Virus record (IMG/VR): IMGVR_UViG_2636416161_000013
Span: 1-7,963 of that record
Strand: one strand, 5' to 3'
Length of the DNA: 7,963 nt
DNA from: a virus
Taxonomy: Duplodnaviria; Heunggongvirae; Uroviricota; Caudoviricetes
Numbering within the stretch: the stretch's first letter is position 1; the number at the start of each line of letters is the position of its first letter. The position numbers were made by a program, and so were the translations under genes. The notes below the pieces were generated by a model, which did not search any database, was not told the origin of the DNA, and was given only the letters and a program-made list of their open reading frames with translations. Below are positions 1-7,963 of this stretch, in pieces.

Positions 1-680
1 GCCACAGGAACCGAACGGGATTTTCCGTTTTTGGTGTTAAAGAACGTCACCCGGTTGCCAACGATATGCTCTCCACGTAGTTCCGATGCTTCACTCCATC
101 GGGCACCAGTAGAAAGACACAGAATGGCAACACGACGCGCATCACCCTCCAGTCGCTCAAGAAGCCGTTCAATCTCATCATCAGAAAGAAAGGCCATCTC
201 TGTGTTCTGAACTTTCAGTTTTCGTATACCGCGTACAGGGTTCGCGTTGTGAAAGACCTCAGCTTCAATCAGCACCGTGAACATGGTAGACAGAACGCAC
301 AAGTCACGATTAATGCTGGATGGCATTAAGCCGGCCTGTAATTTCTCTGACCGATACTCAAGCATAAATTTTTGCGTCATCTGGCTGGCACGCGGATCTC
401 CCATTTCACGAATCACTTTCTCCATCCGGATCCTGTAGGTATCACCGTAAGCCTGGTTACGGCCATCAAGCATCCACCATATATCAAGCAGCTCTGATAA
501 TCTCCGTCGATCAGCAGGTTTAGCCAGCCATGGGTTGTTATGGAAATTCTGTAAAATATGTTCTTTGAAGGCCTCCGCACTCCCTTTCCTGACAAAAATT
601 TTACGTATCCGTTTGCCGTACGCCCCTTGGGGCCTGATATCGAGCAGCCATCGCCCATCATCCATCTTTCTGATCGACAT
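1..680 (-). CDS. Tyrosine recombinase / phage integrase, P2/186-like class; N-terminal 226 codons only, C-terminal catalytic end lies beyond the left window edge
   Basis: Minus-strand frame with ATG at 680-678 and no in-frame stop down to position 3; not in the supplied ORF track because it runs off the edge. Translation MSIRKMDDGRWLLDIRPQGAYGKRIRKIF...VAILCLSTGARWSEASELRGEHIVGNRVTFFNTKNGKSRSVPV shows an arm-binding-type N-terminus and the conserved LSTGARxSEA box carrying the first catalytic Arg of tyrosine recombinases. Strong SD AAGGAGG lies 10 nt upstream, inside the 3' end of the primase gene; primase stop TAA (685-683) is 2 nt from this ATG. Confidence 0.8.
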   Translation of the reverse strand, partial: MSIRKMDDGRWLLDIRPQGAYGKRIRKIFVRKGSAEAFKEHILQNFHNNPWLAKPADRRRLSELLDIWWMLDGRNQAYGDTYRIRMEKVIREMGDPRASQMTQKFMLEYRSEKLQAGLMPSSINRDLCVLSTMFTVLIEAEVFHNANPVRGIRKLKVQNTEMAFLSDDEIERLLERLEGDARRVAILCLSTGARWSEASELRGEHIVGNRVTFFNTKNGKSRSVPV

Positions 681-682
681 AC

Positions 683-3352
683 TTAAGCCCCCTCCTTGTT
701 ACTAAATATCCAGCATTTCAATACCTCCTTCTCTCTGGCCTCGGCTATTCCCCTCCCGGCGTTCGCCTGTCTGGATACCTCGCTACGGACGGGCTTGTAT
801 CCAATCAGCGATCGAGAACGGCCAGCCTTGAGAAGCTTTATCATTTCGGGATTGGTTTGGATCTTCACGTGGTGAACGGCGGCAACCTGCTCAAGTTGCG
901 GGATACTGACGGCAAACTCATTCTGCCGTCCCTTGCCAAAATGATTTACGCCGTATGCTGTGATGCCGTCCAGATAGTCGAACGCCTCCCAGAACGCCAT
1001 CACTTCCGGCAAGTCATCCATTACCGCTTTAGCCTGCTCCTCTGCCATTCGCTCCAGTTCCAGACATGTGGCATCAAGCCATTCATCCGGGATATCAATA
1101 ACGCATTTCAGCGCCCTGACCAGTGCAATTAGTTGCGCGTGATTTTTGGCAATACGCTGATGGCGAATATTCTCGCAACCGTAAAGGCGGGTTGTTTCAG
1201 AATCCGAGAGTGCCATAAACAGATCCATAATCGCCCGCTCCTGGCTTACTGCCCGATGGATAAAACCTGATACCTGCTCAACGGGGTAAAGCTCCAGCCG
1301 TTTTGCTGCCAGTCGGCTATCTGGTGAGTGGCGTTTTTTATCGGTGTATATACGTACCAGACGCTCGATAATTGCCGATGAGGCGTTTACCGTGGCATTC
1401 TGCGCAATCACGACAGCCCCTTTAAAAACGGGGTCATATGTGGCGTTATCATTAGTTTTAACACCACGTACCCCAATACCACCGCCGTTATAGAGGCTTT
1501 TCAGGTTATCAAAGTCAAACGCACCTCTTTTTTGCGCATTGTCCCCCCGGTCTGCTTCAATCAGAACAACAGGTAATCCGGCGACCTGTCCAAAAGTTCG
1601 CTTCCAGCCTGATTCCGATCCTTTGGTTGGATCAACACCTTCATAGTTGTCACGGCCACACAAACGCCAACAAAAATCAATCAGCGTTGTTTTACCCGTT
1701 CCAGGCTCTCCGGTAATCTCAAGAAAAGGGTAAGACGTGTTTTTCTGCCTGATTTGTTCGCTGAACAACGAACCCAGCCAGAAGGCCAGGGTAATAATTC
1801 CCTTTTCACCAAAAGCCAGCCAGAGATCTTCCACCCAGGATATTGTGAATTTATCCGGTTTTTTATAGTTAATCTGCAATATTGGTTTTTTATTCAATGG
1901 TTTTGCGTTTATGCCATCAATTTCAAAATAATCCTCTTCATTGATTTCGTAGGTTTTACCATTACAAACCGCGACATCATTAAACAGCCACGCGCCAATC
2001 TCTTTGTTGTATCCGATAAAATCCTGACCGATAACATTTTTTATTGCGGGAAGGTCATTTTTTATTAATGCATCAAGGTGCGCAGTCGTTCCGGTATAAA
2101 TACCGCCTTTTGCCACATGCAACAGGCGTTTTTTAAATTCAGATGCGGATGTTAATTGTCCTGATGTAAAGGTGTTTTTCACCGTCGCACCATCCGGGAA
2201 CGTAACACGGAAGTAATACCATGCTTCATCCGTGTCATTGTTTCGAATGTAATAAAGCGGCGCCGGGTTACAGTTTGCGATTTCTTTTACAGCGCCGGAT
2301 TCCTTAAGTGCAATTTTGCGCGCTTCATCTTCGTCAACATTTCGCTCATTTATGACGCGTTCAACAGCCTTCATATGGCGCTCAATATCCAGTTTGAACC
2401 AGAAAACACGGTTATCAAAAGTAAAATGAAATTCCTTTCGCTCACGAAAGGAAAACATTATCAGCGCCTTATCTCTCGGAGATTTTGCCAGCAATAAATC
2501 ACCGTAATAACGGTATCTTTTCACATCATGGCCACGCAGCTTTCCGGCGATGTGTAAATCATTCCAGTCGCGTTTATTACTGTTTTTTCCTGGTAACGCC
2601 GCTGCCGTTCTCCAGCCGTCTTCGGCGCTGCGTTCTGCATGTTTTTTCGCATAACGCTCACCCGCACGCCCGTTATCCAGCGCCCACACGATAACCGGAC
2701 GGGGATTATCCCCGCACAGCTTCGCCAGCTCTTCCAGCGCCTTATCAGGGTAGTTTACGGCAGACATGACAGAAACGGCCGCAATGCCATTCTGGTTAAG
2801 GCTGATGGCATCAAAGATACCCTCACAAATCCAGATTTCTTTGGCCTTGCTTAAATCATCTCCCGGATAAGCCCACCACAACCCCTTGTAGCTGCCGGAA
2901 AAATTCGCCTTGCGCGCGAAGCGTTCCGGTCGGTCTATGATGCGCTCCCACCACACGCCGTCAGCCAGTGTAAAACGCACAGTAGCGGCCTGTTCGCCGC
3001 TTTCCTTGTCCTGGTATCGCTCCTGAGTAAATGCTCCCTTCAGTGGCTCCACAGCAATATTGCGTGCTTCCAGAAGATAAGCTGTCGCCGCTGCGTATGG
3101 ATTGTCTTTCGTGCTGATATAGCGATCTGACCATGATGAAAACACATCCGGGTAAAGTTCTTTGGTCAACAGGTCTGTACCGCATTTATTTTCGCGCCCA
3201 CAGTGCACGATGTACGGCCTTTCAAGGCTGGTAAAGAGCTCCTTCTTTCCACATTGCGGACAAACACCATACCGGAGGTAGTTATTTTCTTCTTTGAAGT
3301 TGTAATCACGGATAAGACGGTTAATAATCTCTTTTCTGGTGTTATGTTTCAT
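683..3352 (-). CDS. P4 alpha-like bifunctional DNA primase / helicase (zinc ribbon, EGYATA/TOPRIM-like primase domain, P-loop NTPase)
   Basis: 889-aa ORF. CPQC...HCGRENKCG zinc-ribbon (about 3179-3262); ICEGIFDAISL primase motif resembling the EGYATA signature (about 2798-2830); Walker A GEPGTGKT verified on the nucleotides at 1688-1711; Walker B-like VVLIEAD (about 1550-1570). SD GGGGG about 8 nt upstream of the ATG at 3352. Confidence 0.9.
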   Translation of the reverse strand: MKHNTRKEIINRLIRDYNFKEENNYLRYGVCPQCGKKELFTSLERPYIVHCGRENKCGTDLLTKELYPDVFSSWSDRYISTKDNPYAAATAYLLEARNIAVEPLKGAFTQERYQDKESGEQAATVRFTLADGVWWERIIDRPERFARKANFSGSYKGLWWAYPGDDLSKAKEIWICEGIFDAISLNQNGIAAVSVMSAVNYPDKALEELAKLCGDNPRPVIVWALDNGRAGERYAKKHAERSAEDGWRTAAALPGKNSNKRDWNDLHIAGKLRGHDVKRYRYYGDLLLAKSPRDKALIMFSFRERKEFHFTFDNRVFWFKLDIERHMKAVERVINERNVDEDEARKIALKESGAVKEIANCNPAPLYYIRNNDTDEAWYYFRVTFPDGATVKNTFTSGQLTSASEFKKRLLHVAKGGIYTGTTAHLDALIKNDLPAIKNVIGQDFIGYNKEIGAWLFNDVAVCNGKTYEINEEDYFEIDGINAKPLNKKPILQINYKKPDKFTISWVEDLWLAFGEKGIITLAFWLGSLFSEQIRQKNTSYPFLEITGEPGTGKTTLIDFCWRLCGRDNYEGVDPTKGSESGWKRTFGQVAGLPVVLIEADRGDNAQKRGAFDFDNLKSLYNGGGIGVRGVKTNDNATYDPVFKGAVVIAQNATVNASSAIIERLVRIYTDKKRHSPDSRLAAKRLELYPVEQVSGFIHRAVSQERAIMDLFMALSDSETTRLYGCENIRHQRIAKNHAQLIALVRALKCVIDIPDEWLDATCLELERMAEEQAKAVMDDLPEVMAFWEAFDYLDGITAYGVNHFGKGRQNEFAVSIPQLEQVAAVHHVKIQTNPEMIKLLKAGRSRSLIGYKPVRSEVSRQANAGRGIAEAREKEVLKCWIFSNKEGA

Positions 3353-3364
3353 ATATAAATCCCC

Positions 3365-3393
3365 CCCACTGCACCTTTTGCAGTGGGTTTTTT
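3365..3393 (+). terminator. Hairpin (9-bp stem CCCACTGCA / TGCAGTGGG, 5-nt loop) followed by TTTTTT on the plus strand; intrinsic-terminator-like in the plus orientation
   Basis: Perfect inverted repeat 3365-3373 / 3379-3387, T-run 3388-3393. In the sense (minus) orientation it is preceded by an A-run and followed by GGGGAUUUAUAU, so it is not a canonical sense terminator; it abuts the primase SD. Confidence 0.5.
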
Positions 3394-3398
3394 ATTAA

Positions 3399-3698
3399 TT
3401 ACTCGTTGCTTATTGCTTTGGCAATCCCGGCGGTTTCGGCGCTATGCCATGAAAAAATTCCGCCGGATGAATGCATACCAGATTTTATTGATTGTAATTC
3501 CCTATAAATAATGTTAGACAGAGATGCAATTTCTTCATTTATAATTTCTGCTGATGCTCTGCCATTTTTATCGTCAAAAACCACAGATATTAAACTGACG
3601 AGATTAATCACATCTGTGAGATCTTCCTTTGCACTTTCTGTAAAAAAGCCAACATATTCTCTATCTAAAAAATTTTCGCTATTCTGACGTTTAGACAT
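3399..3698 (-). CDS. Hypothetical protein, 99 aa, moderately acidic, AT-rich gene
   Basis: ORF with ATG at 3698 and SD GGGGAG 5 nt upstream; stop TAA at 3401-3399. I counted about 15 Asp+Glu against 9 Lys+Arg. Visibly more AT-rich than flanking genes. No motif recognised. Confidence 0.6.
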   Translation of the reverse strand: MSKRQNSENFLDREYVGFFTESAKEDLTDVINLVSLISVVFDDKNGRASAEIINEEIASLSNIIYRELQSIKSGMHSSGGIFSWHSAETAGIAKAISNE

Positions 3699-3765
3699 AA
3701 AAACTCCCCGACCCGTTAAGGCCGAAATATAAATTTAATTCAGTTATCAGTTGGTAATTCGGGAA

Positions 3766-3996
3766 TCAGGCGGAAAGCTGCGTCACCTTCAACGCCCTGA
3801 AATGTGTCATTCCCAGCTCTTCCAGCCCTTCGGCTGCGCGGCGTATGGCTTCGCCCGGTCCCGTTCCGTATACCGTTGCATGTGCATGTGCATGTGCATG
3901 TTTGGTTAACCCACGTTTATTAACGGCATAACCCAACACAAAGAAACGTTTTTCACCACTGCCATTATTTTTACGGGATGTTGAACGGGTTTTCAT
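3766..3996 (-). CDS. Hypothetical protein, 76 aa, containing an internal (His-Ala)4 repeat
   Basis: ATG at 3996 overlaps the stop of the upstream ORF in an ATGA arrangement (translational coupling). Encodes KHAHAHAHAT from a hexanucleotide tandem repeat. No family recognised. Confidence 0.6.
   Translation of the reverse strand: MKTRSTSRKNNGSGEKRFFVLGYAVNKRGLTKHAHAHAHATVYGTGPGEAIRRAAEGLEELGMTHFRALKVTQLSA
3876..3899. repeat. Perfect hexanucleotide tandem repeat (GCATGT)x4 on plus = (CATGCA)x4 in sense, inside the 76-aa CDS
   Basis: Direct reading: gcatgt gcatgt gcatgt gcatgt at 3876-3899; in frame it encodes His-Ala x4. Confidence 0.9.
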
Positions 3997-4181
3997 TTCT
4001 TCACCTTTACCACTGATGCTGTGAGTTCTTCTTCTGGCAACTGATATTTCGGCGCAATTTCTTCCGTATACCTGATAGCGTCCCTTGCCGCTTTTCCTTT
4101 TGATTTATATTTATATGTGGTCCGGTAGTTTTCTTCCTCTCCTGTTACCACATTACGCAATTTAATATGAATCTCGTACAT
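3993..4181 (-). CDS. Hypothetical small protein, 62 aa (MYEIHIKLRN...)
   Basis: I prefer the internal ATG at 4181 over the track start at 4211: it has SD GGAGGGG 5 nt upstream and sits 2 nt after the stop of the preceding ORF, whereas 4211 has no usable SD and overlaps the upstream gene. Lys/Glu-rich; no motif recognised. Confidence 0.55.
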   Translation of the reverse strand: MYEIHIKLRNVVTGEEENYRTTYKYKSKGKAARDAIRYTEEIAPKYQLPEEELTASVVKVKK

Positions 4182-4183
4182 CG

Positions 4184-4366
4184 TTACCCCTCCATGATTT
4201 TTACTGCGCATTTGTGGGTTAATCGCCCCTGTTCATTCGTGCGGCTGTACTCCATGCGGCTGGCAGCACGCAGGGCATCATCACAGGTCTGATATTCCCT
4301 GACATGAAAAAACTGACGAACGTCGCCGCTCTGGCAGTTAATCAGGGTGATAAGGAGCTTAAACAT
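4184..4366 (-). CDS. Hypothetical small protein, 60 aa (MFKLLITLINCQSGD...)
   Basis: I prefer the ATG at 4366 (SD GGGAGG 6 nt upstream) over the track start at 4444, which is a GTG. It overlaps the stop of the upstream ORF as ATGTTTAA. No motif recognised. Confidence 0.55.
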   Translation of the reverse strand: MFKLLITLINCQSGDVRQFFHVREYQTCDDALRAASRMEYSRTNEQGRLTHKCAVKIMEG

Positions 4367-4886
4367 TGCACGCCTCCCGGATACGAATACGGGCAACAAA
4401 GACCAGACGGGATGCCGGAAGCAGGGCGCGCGCTTCGCGCTCACTGGCAGCGGTAACGGTATGAAGGCGAATATTTTTACCGTGGCACTGCATAAAGCGC
4501 CAGATAAAATCAGGGCGTGTTGATATAGCCATTTTGGCGGCTCCTTGATTAAGTTTACGGAGTCTCGCCAGCACGCTGCTAAACATGGTGGCGGGACGTA
4601 ACAGGGTTAGCAGACTGGCAATCAAGGAACCAGCGAGCGCAAAGGCTCCCCCATTACGCCCCGCCATAATACGGGGTAGGGTGGAATTACGGGCACAAAA
4701 AAACCGCATTACGGAAATATAGCGGCTACCCGCTTGATTGTTCAGGCTGCTAAACCCGGCACCCGCTTTATGAGGTGCGGGCAAACGATACGCCATGACA
4801 AAAAAGCGAGTCAAGCAATATTGCAAATTATTTTTGCTCACTTGCGCTGAGTGATTGATTTTAAAGAGTAAAAAAGCCATAATCAT
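4359..4886 (-). CDS. Hypothetical protein, 175 aa from the ATG at 4886, or about 145 aa if translation starts at the ATG at 4796 (MAYRLPAPHKAG...)
   Basis: Long minus-strand ORF whose stop overlaps the next gene start. The first 30 codons are AT-rich with only a weak SD (AGGCAGAA), so the true start is uncertain. No family recognised. Confidence 0.5.
   Translation of the reverse strand: MIMAFLLFKINHSAQVSKNNLQYCLTRFFVMAYRLPAPHKAGAGFSSLNNQAGSRYISVMRFFCARNSTLPRIMAGRNGGAFALAGSLIASLLTLLRPATMFSSVLARLRKLNQGAAKMAISTRPDFIWRFMQCHGKNIRLHTVTAASEREARALLPASRLVFVARIRIREACNV
4855..4883 (+). promoter_or_regulatory. Candidate sigma70-type promoter on the plus strand (TTGATT -17 bp- CATAAT), antisense to the small-ORF operon
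   Basis: -35-like TTGATT at 4855-4860 and -10-like CATAAT at 4878-4883 with a 17-bp spacer; a plus-strand hairpin/T-tract lies about 70-100 bp downstream. Motif match only, in an AT-rich region; weak evidence. Confidence 0.3.
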
Positions 4887-4948
4887 TTCTGCCTATTACT
4901 TCTTATTGCTGACTTTAGGTGCATTAAATGCACATCCTTGACTGGTTG

Positions 4949-4980
4949 GCTCGCTAGCTTCAGCGAGCTTCTTTTTTTTT
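4949..4980 (+). terminator. Rho-independent terminator-like hairpin on the plus strand (7-bp GC-rich stem GCTCGCT / AGCGAGC, 6-nt loop, then TTCTTTTTTTTT)
   Basis: Inverted repeat 4949-4955 / 4962-4968 followed by a T-tract at 4969-4980, nine of them consecutive. In the minus orientation the hairpin is preceded by an A-run and followed by non-U sequence, so it is oriented against the genes. Confidence 0.6.
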
Positions 4981-5080
4981 GCTCTGCTGCCAGTCCTTGG
5001 CCTCCTTCCCCCACATGTAGCAATACGTTCAGATCTGTAAGTTTTGCCACCCAGTGATGGACGCAATAAACCACCAACGC

Positions 5081-5401
5081 TTATTCAACTCTGGCGCTAC
5101 CGGATTCTCTCTCCCTTTTCTTTTTGGCGTTTTCGTATGGGTTATTCACTTTGGCAATAACTGGCGGATTACGTAGCCACCACAAAACATCACTTAACAG
5201 CCAGGTACATGAGCAACGCCCCAAAGAGTGACGAGGAGGAAAAGCACCGATCTTCTCCAGTTCCCAGCGGCGGGAGCGTGAAAGCGTGGTCATTTTTTTA
5301 CACTTCTCTTCCCTGATGCGTTCTTCGCAGTCAAAGCCATACTCGGCGAGTATGGTGCGGCGCTGTTCTGGAGTTGGTGGAATGAATGCGGATTGAGTCA
5401 T
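5081..5401 (-). CDS. alpA: AlpA-family (prophage CP4-57 regulatory / P4 Vis-like) helix-turn-helix transcriptional regulator, 106 aa with an N-terminal extension
   Basis: Translation contains MTTLSRSRRWELEKIGAFPPRHSLGRCSCTWLLSDVLWWL, matching the AlpA-type HTH pattern (SRST-like turn, G.FP, LG, W, Wl) as I recall it. ATG at 5401 with SD GGGGGA 4 nt upstream; an internal ATG at 5293 would give the about 70-aa core only. Confidence 0.8.
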   Translation of the reverse strand: MTQSAFIPPTPEQRRTILAEYGFDCEERIREEKCKKMTTLSRSRRWELEKIGAFPPRHSLGRCSCTWLLSDVLWWLRNPPVIAKVNNPYENAKKKRERESGSARVE

Positions 5402-5496
5402 ATTTCCCCCTATGTTTCTGAACTTTCGGGGGAGATTTTTGTTTTACGGAGTTTTGAAAGCAAGTATTAAAGGTCTTATTAAGATGCTTGCTGGTC

Positions 5497-6549
5497 TTAC
5501 TGAGATGATGCTTTAATCCATCTTGATATAGTACTTTTATCAAAGCGCATATTGAGTCCTGCCTCTCTTGCTTCCGCGGTCAATATATCAGCAAGTTTTA
5601 CCGGATTGTTTTCGAGTTCTTTATAATGAATAACAAGCATCGCACGAAAAAAATCCTTCATTGTTTTAGATAATCGTTCTATATTGTTTTTATTGGTGCA
5701 TATGTCTTTCTCTCCATCCTCAGAACTTAATATATTGTTACCCGCACACAAATATAAAGTATCTGCCAATGGATTAACATAATCTTTTCTTAACTCGCTA
5801 TTGGAGTTTGTAGCATTTTGTATTTTTAAAAAATCATTCTTTAAGATATATAAATCACCAATATCAAAAGAAACATCCTCAGTAACAATTAGTCCTATAT
5901 GTATATCAACGTCAGAAGCAATTATAATATTGCTATTAATTATTCGGTTGGCTTTAAACTTCTTATTAAAATCATAGTTGGCAAAAAAACTTCCCCCCAA
6001 AGCGAAAATGCCGCCTATTTCAACAAAATACTTATGGTATTTTTCTTGAATACCTTTAAATACTGGTGGCACAACTGCCACAGCTCTTTCATCCGTTGCT
6101 ATTCGATATACACTATATATGTGATAATTTTCCCCATAATATACCCCCCTGTTATAATAATTTAACAAAGCAAATGCAGTATCAATTGCTATGTCACCAA
6201 ATTTGGGCGCTACATATGAATGACTTAGAGATTCGCACATTGAATCAAATATAATTCTCGACTTGGTTTTTATATAATTAAAACCATGGTGTTCTGCCGC
6301 CCTTTCTGAAATGGCATCAAGATCAGATAACCGTGATTTACACGGTTCTGAATCCATAAACTTACGCAGACAATCGAAATTAACCACATCTTTTTCATCT
6401 GGGATATTTAATACTCCATATGCAGATTCAATTTTTATACAAATACGAATGCAGCCTGTCACAGCCCAATGAATAAGATCGTCAATATCGCAGTCTAATA
6501 ACTTTGCCGCGCGCTCAATAGGATAGTAATCTCTTAGTGGTAACGTCAT
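5497..6549 (-). CDS. Hypothetical protein, 350 aa, AT-rich gene immediately downstream of the integrase; function unknown
   Basis: ORF starts 16 bp after the integrase stop on the same strand with a weak SD. Asn/Ile/Tyr/Asp-rich product. N-terminal YYPIERAAKLLDCDIDDLIHWAVTG and C-terminal KSTISRWIK segments look HTH-like but match no motif I can name; no P-loop or other catalytic signature seen. Confidence 0.75.
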   Translation of the reverse strand: MTLPLRDYYPIERAAKLLDCDIDDLIHWAVTGCIRICIKIESAYGVLNIPDEKDVVNFDCLRKFMDSEPCKSRLSDLDAISERAAEHHGFNYIKTKSRIIFDSMCESLSHSYVAPKFGDIAIDTAFALLNYYNRGVYYGENYHIYSVYRIATDERAVAVVPPVFKGIQEKYHKYFVEIGGIFALGGSFFANYDFNKKFKANRIINSNIIIASDVDIHIGLIVTEDVSFDIGDLYILKNDFLKIQNATNSNSELRKDYVNPLADTLYLCAGNNILSSEDGEKDICTNKNNIERLSKTMKDFFRAMLVIHYKELENNPVKLADILTAEAREAGLNMRFDKSTISRWIKASSQ

Positions 6550-6565
6550 TCTTTTCGCTCACATA

Positions 6566-7768
6566 TTATTTATCTTTAACCATTTTTTCTAAACATTCAA
6601 GCCAGTCATTTAGAGCCTTTAATTTAAATGGGATATACTGGCTAAGATTATAGTTAAATTCTGCGGAGCCTGCATTATATACGTGACCTAATAATGACTC
6701 GACAATATGAGGCATTACCCCCATGTTGTTTAATCCAGTTGAAAATGTCCGTCTTAAATCGTGTAGTGTCCATTTTTCATTATGCCCGAATATTTTATAC
6801 ATTCTGCGACCTTTCAGAGAAACAGCTCTATGCGTTCTCTCCTCACCCAAAAGTAAGCCCGTCCTCCCGGTTTCCTGTTTTAGCTCTTTTAACCAGTCTC
6901 TTATGCCTTCGGGAATTGGCCGAATAATCTTTTTATTACTTTTACTGTTATTTCTTGGAACAATCCAAACCCATTCATTAAAATCCCACTCAATCCAATG
7001 AGAACGGCGAATCTCTACAGTTCTAGCCCCAAAGACAATAAGCAACTTTATTAATCTAGAAAAATAAATATCCCGATGTTTCTCCTTTGCAAAATACCAA
7101 AGATCTGATAGTTCGGCATCACTCAAAACACGGTCGCGCTGTCCGGCAGATTCCCCTACATCGGTTAACGTTAAATGAACCAGGGCATCACTGATGGCAT
7201 AACGCCGAACATTGCAAAACCGCAATGCCTGCTTGGAGAGCTGAAACATACGCCCCGCCGTTTTTGAACTTATAGCGCGAATCTCATCAAAACATTTTAC
7301 CCAATGGCGAGTATCGCACCGTGATAACGGATAATGGCCTATTCTGGGGTAGACATGTTTGCAGAATTGCGCCCTTATCAATTCCTCATCTTTGCGCTTA
7401 TGTCTTGCATAATTGACCAACCAATATTCCAACGCATCTCGAACAGTAACAGGAGCACGGGATTCTTCAGTAAAAAGTTGGAGTTCAATTTTTGGATCAA
7501 GACCATTAGCCAACCATTGACGGCAACGCTCACGCCACATCCTGGCATCTTTCAGACTAATATCAGGGTAATTCCCTAGAGTAAGACGAATAACTGAACT
7601 CTCACGCCCTCCAAGGCGATATGAAAAAACCCAGCTCACATGCCCTTTAGTTGATAACCTGACCCCTAACCCCTCTCCGTCAGCAAGCATTTCAACACGA
7701 TCCCTATGCGTTCCTTGCAGCGCCTTTAGTTTCCTGTCGCTGAGCTTATTCGTTCCAGACATCATCAC
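6566..7768 (-). CDS. int: Site-specific tyrosine integrase, P4 / CP4-57 family (tRNA-island type)
   Basis: 400-aa ORF. N-terminal arm-binding-like region LSDRKLKAL...GLGVRLSTKGHVSWVFSYRLGG...LGNYP.ISLKDAR and C-terminal catalytic region HDLRRTFST...LLGHVYN...Y. The track start at 7768 is a GTG; the first ATGs are at 7765 and 7762. Confidence 0.9.
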   Translation of the reverse strand: MMMSGTNKLSDRKLKALQGTHRDRVEMLADGEGLGVRLSTKGHVSWVFSYRLGGRESSVIRLTLGNYPDISLKDARMWRERCRQWLANGLDPKIELQLFTEESRAPVTVRDALEYWLVNYARHKRKDEELIRAQFCKHVYPRIGHYPLSRCDTRHWVKCFDEIRAISSKTAGRMFQLSKQALRFCNVRRYAISDALVHLTLTDVGESAGQRDRVLSDAELSDLWYFAKEKHRDIYFSRLIKLLIVFGARTVEIRRSHWIEWDFNEWVWIVPRNNSKSNKKIIRPIPEGIRDWLKELKQETGRTGLLLGEERTHRAVSLKGRRMYKIFGHNEKWTLHDLRRTFSTGLNNMGVMPHIVESLLGHVYNAGSAEFNYNLSQYIPFKLKALNDWLECLEKMVKDK

Positions 7769-7777
7769 CGTTCCGAT

Positions 7778-7800
7778 ATTGATACACGCATTGATACACG
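7778..7800. repeat. Two tandem direct copies of ATTGATACACG (7778-7788 and 7790-7800, 12-bp period) 10-30 bp upstream of the integrase start
   Basis: Read directly from the sequence; the position in the int 5' region suggests a protein-binding (operator or arm-type) site. Confidence 0.7.
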
Positions 7801-7810
7801 TGAAATATTA

Positions 7811-7889
7811 ATATCCAGAAAAAATGAAATCGAGCATGAACACAAAATCACTACAACATAATGATTTTGATTGATTTTTTATATCCAGA
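7811..7889. repeat. Direct repeat ATATCCAGA at 7811-7819 and 7881-7889 in the AT-rich region upstream of int
   Basis: Two exact 9-bp copies 70 bp apart; a 10-bp AT palindrome ATATTAATAT (7805-7814) overlaps the first copy. Confidence 0.5.
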
Positions 7890-7963
7890 GGGTAAACACC
7901 AGAAAAGTCAGGAACATAAAAAACATTACTTCTACAGTATGTTTCATATCTCTAACCATATGA

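Follow-up and report, generated by a model that had tools for sequence, protein, structure and literature searches.

A probable immunity-controlled early operon between alpA and the primase gene of a P4-related satellite integrated in Escherichia coli

Gene layout and immunity RNA elements

The region studied here lies on the minus strand of a 7,963-nucleotide (nt) stretch of viral DNA (IMG/VR record IMGVR_UViG_2636416161_000013, positions 1 to 7,963; referred to as the window), at positions 4886 to 3766, between alpA and a primase gene. It holds four consecutive open reading frames (ORFs), ORF1 to ORF4, and most likely represents the early ("left") operon, under immunity control, of a P4-related phage satellite that has integrated into Escherichia coli. 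The features can be read directly from the sequence and agree in position with the first-pass annotation, which had described the four minus-strand ORFs as an overlapping operon of unknown function. The junction between ORF1 and ORF2 is ATGTTTAA (4366 to 4359), in which the start of ORF2 overlaps the stop codon of ORF1 (the kil/eta stop, see below), and those between ORF2 and ORF3 and between ORF3 and ORF4 are TAACGATG (4186 to 4179) and ATGA (3996 to 3993), respectively. Shine-Dalgarno sites (GGGAGG, GGAGGGG, and AAGGTGA) are found at the internal starts. Lengths, starts, Shine-Dalgarno sequences, and junctions were kept in most related elements. The operon had been drawn as ending at 3766; a fifth small gene, ORF5, lies beyond those coordinates, between ORF4 and the primase gene. 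The slot itself had been recognized rightly, since in phage P4 the order is alpA (ORF88), eta/kil with the CI RNA, epsilon, orf151, cnr, and alpha.

Table 1. Coordinates of genes and RNA elements in the alpA-primase interval (window positions)
Feature	Position	Strand	Remarks
ORF1 (long eta-like ORF)	4886-4359	-	175 codons; in frame with kil/icd-like gene
σ70 promoter-like site, TTGACT-18 nt-TATCGT	4814-4785	-	Consensus scan; inside long ORF
ORF1 alternative start	ATG 4796	-	Would give 145 amino acids (aa)
isrK/seqA-like leader RNA	4778-4697	-	RF01394, 52.1 bits (gathering score, 50)
Target a1, TTTAGCAG	4754-4747	-	In leader
Target b1, AATCAAG	4739-4733	-	In leader
C4/CI antisense RNA	4671-4584	-	RF01695, 74.7 bits (gathering score, 45); E value, 1e-13; model positions 1-87 of 87
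C4 loop b', TCCTTGATT	4628-4620	-	Complementary to b1 and b2
Single-stranded C4 tail a', CTGCTAA	4613-4607	-	Complementary to a1 and a2
Target a2, TTTAGCAG	4583-4576	-	Downstream of C4
Target b2, AATCAAGGAG	4550-4541	-	Contains Shine-Dalgarno AAGGAG of kil/icd-like gene
kil/icd-like gene	4532-4359	-	57 aa, starts MAISTRPDFIWRF...; AAGGAG 8 nt upstream of ATG 4532
ORF2	4366-4184	-	60 aa; orphan small protein
ORF3	4181-3993	-	62 aa; orphan small protein
ORF4	3996-3766	-	76 aa; best conserved of the small proteins
ORF5	3698-3399	-	99 aa; last small gene ahead of primase
Primase gene	3352-683	-	889 aa

A C4/CI antisense RNA with two target pairs, a1/b1 upstream and a2/b2 downstream, is present in ORF1 (Table 1). 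The stretch shares 79 to 81% nucleotide identity with the c4 regions of phages P1 and P7, and a repeat search that was given no prior pattern recovered the complementarities of the a and b targets as well as the outer stem of the C4 RNA. The leader upstream ends in a hairpin followed by U7 (about 4724 to 4697), and its RF01394 match is common to P4 and three related elements (L002, L004, and L005; related loci are given here by L numbers). The isrK match begins 7 nt downstream of the end of the promoter-like site, which is invariant among the E. coli relatives and nearly invariant in Yersinia and is a candidate counterpart of the P4 constitutive promoter PLE. As far as can be judged from sequence, the module carries all of the defining features of the C4/CI RNA, isrK/seqA, and Icd/Kil families.

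Covariation was assessed in an alignment of 10 related elements from E. coli and Yersinia enterocolitica. Across these, b1, b', and b2 changed together as exact reverse complements, giving five b-types with b1/b2 and b' cores of AATCAAG and CTTGATT, GTTAGAG and CTCTAAC, GTAGAAG and CTTCTAC, GACAAAG and CTTTGTC, and AATTGG and CCAATT, respectively. Likewise, a1, a', and a2 changed together, and two a-types were identified (TTTAGCAG/CTGCTAA and TTTGACAG/CTGTCAA). Calculated duplex energies were better for cognate than for non-cognate combinations in nearly all pairings. Taken comparatively, the three-way covariation and the stability of the cognate duplexes argue strongly for a functional RNA that pairs with both sets of targets. 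Across window positions 4541-4758 and the aligned loci L002-L015, the a and b types occur in independent combinations (L012, for example, has a-type 1 with b-type 2), which suggests that immunity determinants are exchanged as modules between near-identical satellites. The comparison thus shows that the related elements have diversified into several predicted immunity types.

The long eta-like frame and its kil/icd-like end

The last 57 codons of ORF1 can be read as a gene of their own. The NCBIfam model NF033153 (phage_ICD_like) matched residues 127 to 168 of ORF1, which are residues 9 to 50 of the 57-aa product, with 51.4 bits against a cut-off of 25, and the same model also matches P7 Icd and, in P4, the kil part of eta (its last 65 codons). 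The ribosome-binding site of this gene falls inside b2, directly downstream of the C4 RNA. In comparisons with Yersinia, the ratio of nonsynonymous to synonymous substitution rates (dN/dS) for this part was 0.10 to 0.17, and by analogy with its relatives the product may be a cell-division inhibitor or killer protein.

For the 118 codons upstream of ATG 4532, pairwise dN/dS ranged from 0.54 to 2.1 (median, about 0.9), and variation in this 5' part clustered in the a and b specificity patches. With dN/dS at about 1, there is therefore no amino acid constraint over these codons. The frame is nonetheless open: no stop codons were found in the long frame of the intact homologues, against 5 to 12 in the other two frames. 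When the observed substitutions were repositioned at random (20000 trials), all six homologues were free of stops in only 1.6% of trials (P of about 0.016).

These properties were compared with those of P4, using the P4 sequence together with the summary of eta/kil given in PMC10111431, which cites Forti et al. 1999 and Sabbattini et al. 1995. According to that summary, the P4 ORF once annotated as "cI" is a nested gene pair, eta/kil, with the constitutive promoter internal to eta; the transcript from the internal promoter is terminated through pairing of CI with seqA and is processed into the CI RNA. It further describes Kil as a truncated, cell-killing form of eta/kil, and full-length Eta as translated only from an upstream late promoter, its translation preventing termination (PMC10111431). 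Since the P4 layout and this published work match what is seen here, ORF1 is taken as the counterpart of eta and its last 57 codons as the counterpart of kil/icd. An open frame at a dN/dS of about 1 fits the P4 eta/kil arrangement, in which it is the act of translating the region that counts and not the peptide, and it provides comparative support for the P4 eta model. That the long ORF is simply spurious was considered and given up on the strength of the published P4 precedent and the open-frame signal.

Alternatively, ORF1 could encode a genuine protein of 175 or 145 aa that acts through its amino acid sequence, for example a repressor of the Ash/Bro type, with the RNA matches being incidental. 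The frame is open in all intact homologues, the Prokaryotic Genome Annotation Pipeline (PGAP) calls a 173-aa "Icd-like protein," PHROG repressor/regulator families align to residues 12 to 173, and P4 Eta is, by the account in PMC10111431, translated. This is nevertheless very improbable. In addition to the dN/dS of about 1 over the first 118 codons, the a and b patches covary as RNA pairs and not as protein, and the C4 gene of L005 contains a -1/+1 indel pair by which about 10 codons are altered. The promoter-like site lies inside the ORF, and the alternative start at ATG 4796, which had been offered as the start of a 145-aa product, falls between its -35 and -10 hexamers and is not retained. 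The matches of protein families to this stretch are, moreover, translations of the RNA gene.

This last point extends to databases and surveys. Pfam PF10554 (Phage_ASH) matches residues 22 to 85 of the P4 "cI ORF" (L017 8168-8584), a stretch that takes in the CI/C4 RNA gene and what immediately follows it, and PHROG "transcriptional repressor" families match the corresponding stretch here (window 4584-4886), where RefSeq/PGAP places the 173-aa "Icd-like protein" at ORF1 with no RNA annotated. The PGAP call, Phage_ASH, and several of the PHROG "repressor" families thus largely capture the translated CI/C4 RNA gene. One published satellite survey took PF10554 as an "epsilon" marker, while true epsilon is PF25738; surveys using Phage_ASH in this way in fact detect the immunity RNA locus.

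Between the alpA stop and the eta-like start, two further sequence features were observed. An A9-hairpin-T9 element (4948-4969) resembles a strong intrinsic terminator on the plus strand, and a 13-bp palindrome (TGCATTTAATGCA, 4920-4932) adjoins it. No P2-type late-promoter motif (TGT-N12-ACA) was found upstream of the eta-like ORF.

Arrays related to this arrangement were seen in three other E. coli satellites (L008, L009, and L010), where two or three tandem "ash family"/Icd-like units precede small ORFs, a DUF4222 gene, and a primase gene. Rfam C4 RNAs were identified twice in L008, twice in L009, and once in L010, and one Icd-like unit of L009 is annotated as frameshifted.

The ORF2-ORF5 cassette

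Evolutionary rates point to selection on protein sequence in all four downstream genes. Values of dN/dS were 0.33 to 0.45 for ORF2, 0.25 to 0.5 for ORF3, 0.08 to 0.14 for ORF4 (vs Yersinia), and 0.15 to 0.6 for ORF5. Within ORF3, the strands gave 0.14 and the helix (aa 31 to 52) gave 0.8 to 0.9. ORF4 carries the conserved motifs GYAVNKRGLTK ... THFxALKV and an in-frame (CATGCA)x4 repeat (3900-3877) encoding HAHAHAHA, located in or beside the loop between the first two predicted strands. Relatives have two copies (72 aa) or three (74 aa, P0024) of this repeat, an in-frame length polymorphism; the repeat also scores as a terminator-like hairpin on the plus strand. A GC-rich hairpin, CCCACTGCA...TGCAGTGGG (window 3365-3387), separates the stop codon of ORF5 from the primase start; most relatives keep it, and it is terminator-like on the plus strand only.

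Profile searches identified the cassette in two more distant satellites, and in each it was flanked by a C4 RNA on its upstream side and a primase gene (about 888 aa) on its downstream side. In L019, homologues of ORF2, ORF3, ORF4, and ORF5 occur in the same order (E values, 7e-15, 3e-14, 1e-25, and 3e-37). In L018, ORF2, ORF4, and ORF5 homologues were found (E values, 5e-19, 5e-14, and 1e-18), with a DUF4222 gene replacing ORF3 and an epsilon-like gene (PF25738) following ORF5. An ORF4-like gene was also identified directly 3' of an Icd-like gene in L008 (E value, 8e-5). Word-indexed searches found 9 to 14 close clusters per protein, all from E. coli or Yersinia, and a search of 1.84 billion cluster representatives with the ORF4 profile yielded 15 relatives and no annotated family.

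On this comparative evidence, ORF2 to ORF5 are real, conserved, uncharacterized genes. That ORF2, ORF3, and ORF4 are instead chance ORFs in a transcribed spacer is extremely improbable and, as far as the sequence data go, refuted: they are very short, match no library family, and have few homologues by word-indexed search, against which stand dN/dS values of 0.08 to 0.5 with synonymous divergence up to >1, conserved lengths, start sites, and Shine-Dalgarno sequences, confident AlphaFold2 (AF2) models, and profile matches to syntenic genes in distant satellites (E values, 1e-14 to 1e-25). The four-gene operon of the first-pass annotation therefore stands for ORF2 to ORF4 and not for ORF1, whose 5' two-thirds are an RNA immunity locus and of which only the last 57 codons are protein-like. 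Similarly, the neutral evolution that it had named as a sign of noncoding sequence (dN/dS near 1) was found for the 5' part of ORF1 and not for ORF2 to ORF4. Its statement that no product could be assigned to a family holds for ORF2, ORF3, and ORF4; ORF1 has C4/CI RNA and Icd-like (NF033153) matches. Of the uncharacterized regulatory or interference module proposed there, the ORF1 part proves to be an RNA immunity module of known kind with an Icd/Kil-like gene, while ORF2 to ORF4 remain orphan families.

Searches of ORF2 to ORF5 against NCBIfam, Pfam, PHROGs, and PADLOC returned only sub-threshold noise (CSD, CATSPERG_C, and CotG), and PDB sequence profiles gave nothing meaningful for the small ORFs, the top match being a designed repeat protein. 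None of ORF2 to ORF5 matched epsilon/Derepression (PF25738) at E values up to 0.1, under conditions in which P4 epsilon scored 170 bits and the L018 gene 57.9 bits; nor did ORF5 match Cnr (DUF5375, PF17345) in Pfam, where the P4 ORF106 control scored 211 bits. ORF5 was also tried as a diverged epsilon or Cnr and rejected, with hhalign probabilities of 0.2% and 0.1%, respectively.

The profiles of ORF2 and ORF3 each matched homologues of the other, and their hhalign score of 20.9 exceeded that of column shuffles (8.6 ± 1.9; 0 of 150 shuffles reached 20.9), so that by sequence comparison the two are distant tandem paralogues. A wider proposal, that all four products (Kil/Icd, ORF2, ORF3, and ORF4) are detectable paralogues, was rejected, as only the ORF2/ORF3 pair was supported and the remaining pairs were at background, apart from a weak hint for Icd and ORF4 (2 of 60 shuffles). 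AlphaFold2 predicted a beta-beta-alpha-beta domain for both ORF3 and ORF4 (predicted local distance difference test [pLDDT], 87.6 and 78, respectively), and a BFVD structure search with these models returned solely uncharacterized small phage proteins with E values of 7e-3 or worse. Known small beta-beta-alpha-beta proteins (the phage-encoded inhibitors T7 Gp2, AcrIC8, and AcrIE2, together with eL20/LX, PurS, and ClpS) share 9 to 19% identity with the models. This small fold is very common, and these neighbors do not justify any conclusion about function.

Several roles can be envisaged for ORF2 to ORF4. Our tentative first choice, at somewhat under even odds, is that they bind and modulate proteins of the helper phage or the host while the satellite is being activated, as epsilon and Kil do in P4. 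A role in none of the classes considered here is possible, though on balance doubtful.

Unlikely, while still credible, is a function as accessory factors for the adjacent primase or for replication, whereby the products would be a loader, an origin-binding protein, or a Cnr-like copy control of the primase-helicase and not helper or host modulators. The cassette is always directly upstream of the large primase gene (about 888 aa) and travels with it in distant satellites, and P4 has cnr in this region. Set against this, neither Cnr (DUF5375) nor any replication family showed similarity to these products, ORF2 is dispensable in Yersinia, and an ORF4-like gene also occurs beside a different, 712-aa DUF927 primase. 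The ORF3 helix is, furthermore, near-neutral between alleles while the neighboring primases, compared by length and not by sequence, stay at 888 to 890 aa.

An anti-defense role is improbable. A toxin-antitoxin or other addiction or defense module is more improbable still, and the pairing of products as toxin and antitoxin raised in the first-pass annotation found no support, since no small ORF matched the toxin-antitoxin and defense models of PADLOC, Pfam, and NCBIfam. A single coupled chain of three or four similarly folded proteins is not how toxin-antitoxin modules are laid out, and the fixed position between the immunity RNA and the primase gene is an early-operon slot and not one of the known defense hotspots of P4-like elements. 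In NCTC9082, the strain carrying this element, the far end of the satellite gene cluster is occupied by a MazEF pair, and relatives have hok.

More speculatively, Kil/Icd, ORF2, ORF3, and ORF4 could form a battery of similar beta-beta-alpha-beta mini-proteins that are co-released by the antisense-RNA switch and act as helper or host inhibitors in place of P4 epsilon. We consider this decidedly unlikely. If it were true, the battery would be partly built by the ORF2/ORF3 tandem duplication, the near-neutral face of the ORF3 helix would mark an interface co-evolving with its target, and a new route of helper derepression or an anti-defense function would be possible.

Source element, comparison with known systems, and proposed control

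The window sequence matches the chromosome of E. coli NCTC9082 with 100% identity, and the whole region was found in 66 of 5426 complete E. coli genomes, while roughly 660 E. coli genomes have the C4-Icd unit. Genomes with these elements also hold P2-like prophages. In NCTC9082, it sits in an island that adjoins gcd and at its far end adjoins hpt. The island runs from an integrase gene through a 350-aa gene, AlpA, the present region, the primase gene, and a second integrase-like gene to ogr/delta, hypothetical genes (77 and 236 aa), a P2-family capsid gene, and the MazEF pair. No match to the 350-aa ORF between the integrase gene and alpA (window 5497-6549) was found in Pfam, NCBIfam, PHROGs, or PADLOC. 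The second integrase-like gene directly follows the primase gene, and the element (L001 4595-7207 and 8380-9381) carries ogr/delta and the P2-family major capsid protein with a neighboring gene, which is 236 to 295 aa across the element and its relatives (L002, L004, L005, and L019). In those relatives the capsid pair is located between alpA and the immunity region; here it lies past the primase gene and ogr/delta. Of the markers of P4-like satellites listed by de Sousa et al. (integrase, psu, delta, sid, alpA, PF10554, and PF03288), integrase and alpA are in the window and ogr/delta is elsewhere in the element. PF10554 and PF03288 had no match among the window proteins, and psu and sid are absent from the annotation of the element (a custom sid profile was not run). 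The element looks like a member of a capsid-encoding, P4-related satellite lineage.

Among the known systems, P4 shares the layout. In its genome (L017), isrK (8615-8692) and C4 (8420-8507) lie inside a long ORF that follows ORF88/alpA and ends in an Icd-like stretch of 65 codons (73.9 bits); epsilon overlaps the stop of this ORF by 8 nt. An AlpA-like gene, isrK/seqA, C4/CI, an Icd-like C terminus, an 8-nt start/stop overlap, and a primase gene thus occur in the same order in both. ORF2 to ORF5 occupy the slot of epsilon, orf151, and cnr, with ORF5 at the cnr position, and P4 epsilon is likewise a small early protein encoded directly after kil/eta and overlapping its stop; there is, however, no homologue of epsilon (PF25738), orf151, or Cnr here, and ORF2 to ORF5 are unrelated families without sequence similarity to epsilon. 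The primase also differs, being Toprim_2 (phrog_1139) and so of another family than the P4 alpha that serves as a marker of P4-like satellites, and the present element has a P2-type capsid gene.

Phages P1 and P7 resemble this locus in RNA family, in the logic of the paired a1/b1 and a2/b2 targets, and in having an Icd-like gene immediately behind the RNA; the annotated order in the P7 record is c4, icd, ant. In the heteroimmunity of P1 and P7, the RNA and its targets co-vary. Here, by contrast, the downstream genes are not ant or kilA, there is no C1 operator context, and the leader with its terminator hairpin is of the P4 type, unlike that of P1/P7 immI. The leader also matches RF01394, as does the Gifsy-1 isrK-orf45-anrP locus, where one promoter gives both a short terminated small RNA and a read-through mRNA, and a small upstream ORF is translationally coupled, through ATGA, to the gene that follows; the same paper describes IsrK as structurally homologous to P4 seqA (PMC4825925). 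In Gifsy-1, IsrK activates translation of orf45-anrP, whereas the C4-type RNA here is expected to repress, and the downstream genes are unrelated. The immunity module accordingly belongs to a well-studied kind, that of P4 eta/kil without the alpA coupling, and ORF2 to ORF5 are uncharacterized, lineage-restricted families.

From these comparisons, the following mode of control can be proposed. A constitutive promoter inside the long ORF (about 4814 to 4785) would produce an isrK/seqA-like leader carrying a1/b1 and the terminator hairpin, and processing of read-through transcripts would yield a stable antisense RNA of the C4/CI type, about 88 nt long. Its loop b' and tail a' could then pair with a1/b1 upstream and with a2/b2 downstream. 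Because b2 covers the Shine-Dalgarno sequence of the 57-aa Kil/Icd-like gene, such pairing is predicted to block kil/icd translation. By analogy with P1 and P4, it would also cause premature termination, leaving ORF2 to ORF5 and the primase gene silent in the resident state; accumulation of the small RNA and repression of the downstream genes are expected on the same grounds. The junctions ATGTTTAA, TAACGATG, and ATGA would couple translation, making ORF2, ORF3, and ORF4 each depend on the preceding gene, and through this coupling a single RNA-controlled ribosome-binding site would gate the operon through ORF4, with its reach perhaps extending to ORF5 and the primase gene. We infer that the tight junctions are better read in this way, as translational coupling that may pass antisense-RNA control down the operon as in P1 immI. 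Transcripts from further upstream would translate the 175-codon eta-like frame across the targets and so override immunity, as for P4 eta, and the ORF2 to ORF4 products would be made only once immunity is lifted.

Several observations weigh against this interpretation. For the RNA elements, the promoter-like site agrees with the consensus at only 9 of 12 positions and has a weak -10 hexamer (TATCGT), the isrK match (RF01394) only marginally exceeds its gathering score, and a c4-a1b1 match (RF03163) at 4791-4739, with 29.5 bits, is under its gathering score. For the long frame, the null model behind the open-frame test (P of about 0.016) ignores constraints from RNA structure. The coupling to alpA that characterizes P4 eta was also not found. 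In P4, ATGATGATG overlaps the ORF88 stop; here alpA stops at 5081 and the long frame has its first start codon at 4886, preceded by an in-frame TAG (4895-4893), so that, unlike P4 eta, the long ORF is separated from alpA by a 195-nt gap holding a hairpin. For the cassette, ORF2 is mostly deleted in the Yersinia element (L002, about 5739-5830), and in L013 (strain CFSAN027346; 1684-2058) ORF2 and ORF3 are joined by a 1-nt insertion and annotated by PGAP as one protein of 124 aa; given this loss and this fusion, ORF2 seems dispensable or tolerant of fusion. The fold matches of ORF3 and ORF4 are generic, and nothing specific backs any role for ORF2, ORF3, or ORF4. Finally, ORF4-like and epsilon-like genes co-occur in L018, and therefore ORF4 is no simple substitute for epsilon. 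With these points taken into account, we place at about 80% the probability that the immunity module is correctly identified, in nature and in logic, and that ORF2 to ORF5 are real, immunity-controlled early genes; this figure does not extend to any particular function of ORF2 to ORF4.

ORF2 to ORF5 constitute a conserved, probably early cassette in a lineage without a recognizable epsilon, and a place to look for the sensing or manipulation of helper phages. The 10 near-identical satellites, with their five b-types and two a-types, are a clear natural case of RNA-based immunity diversifying among competing satellites.

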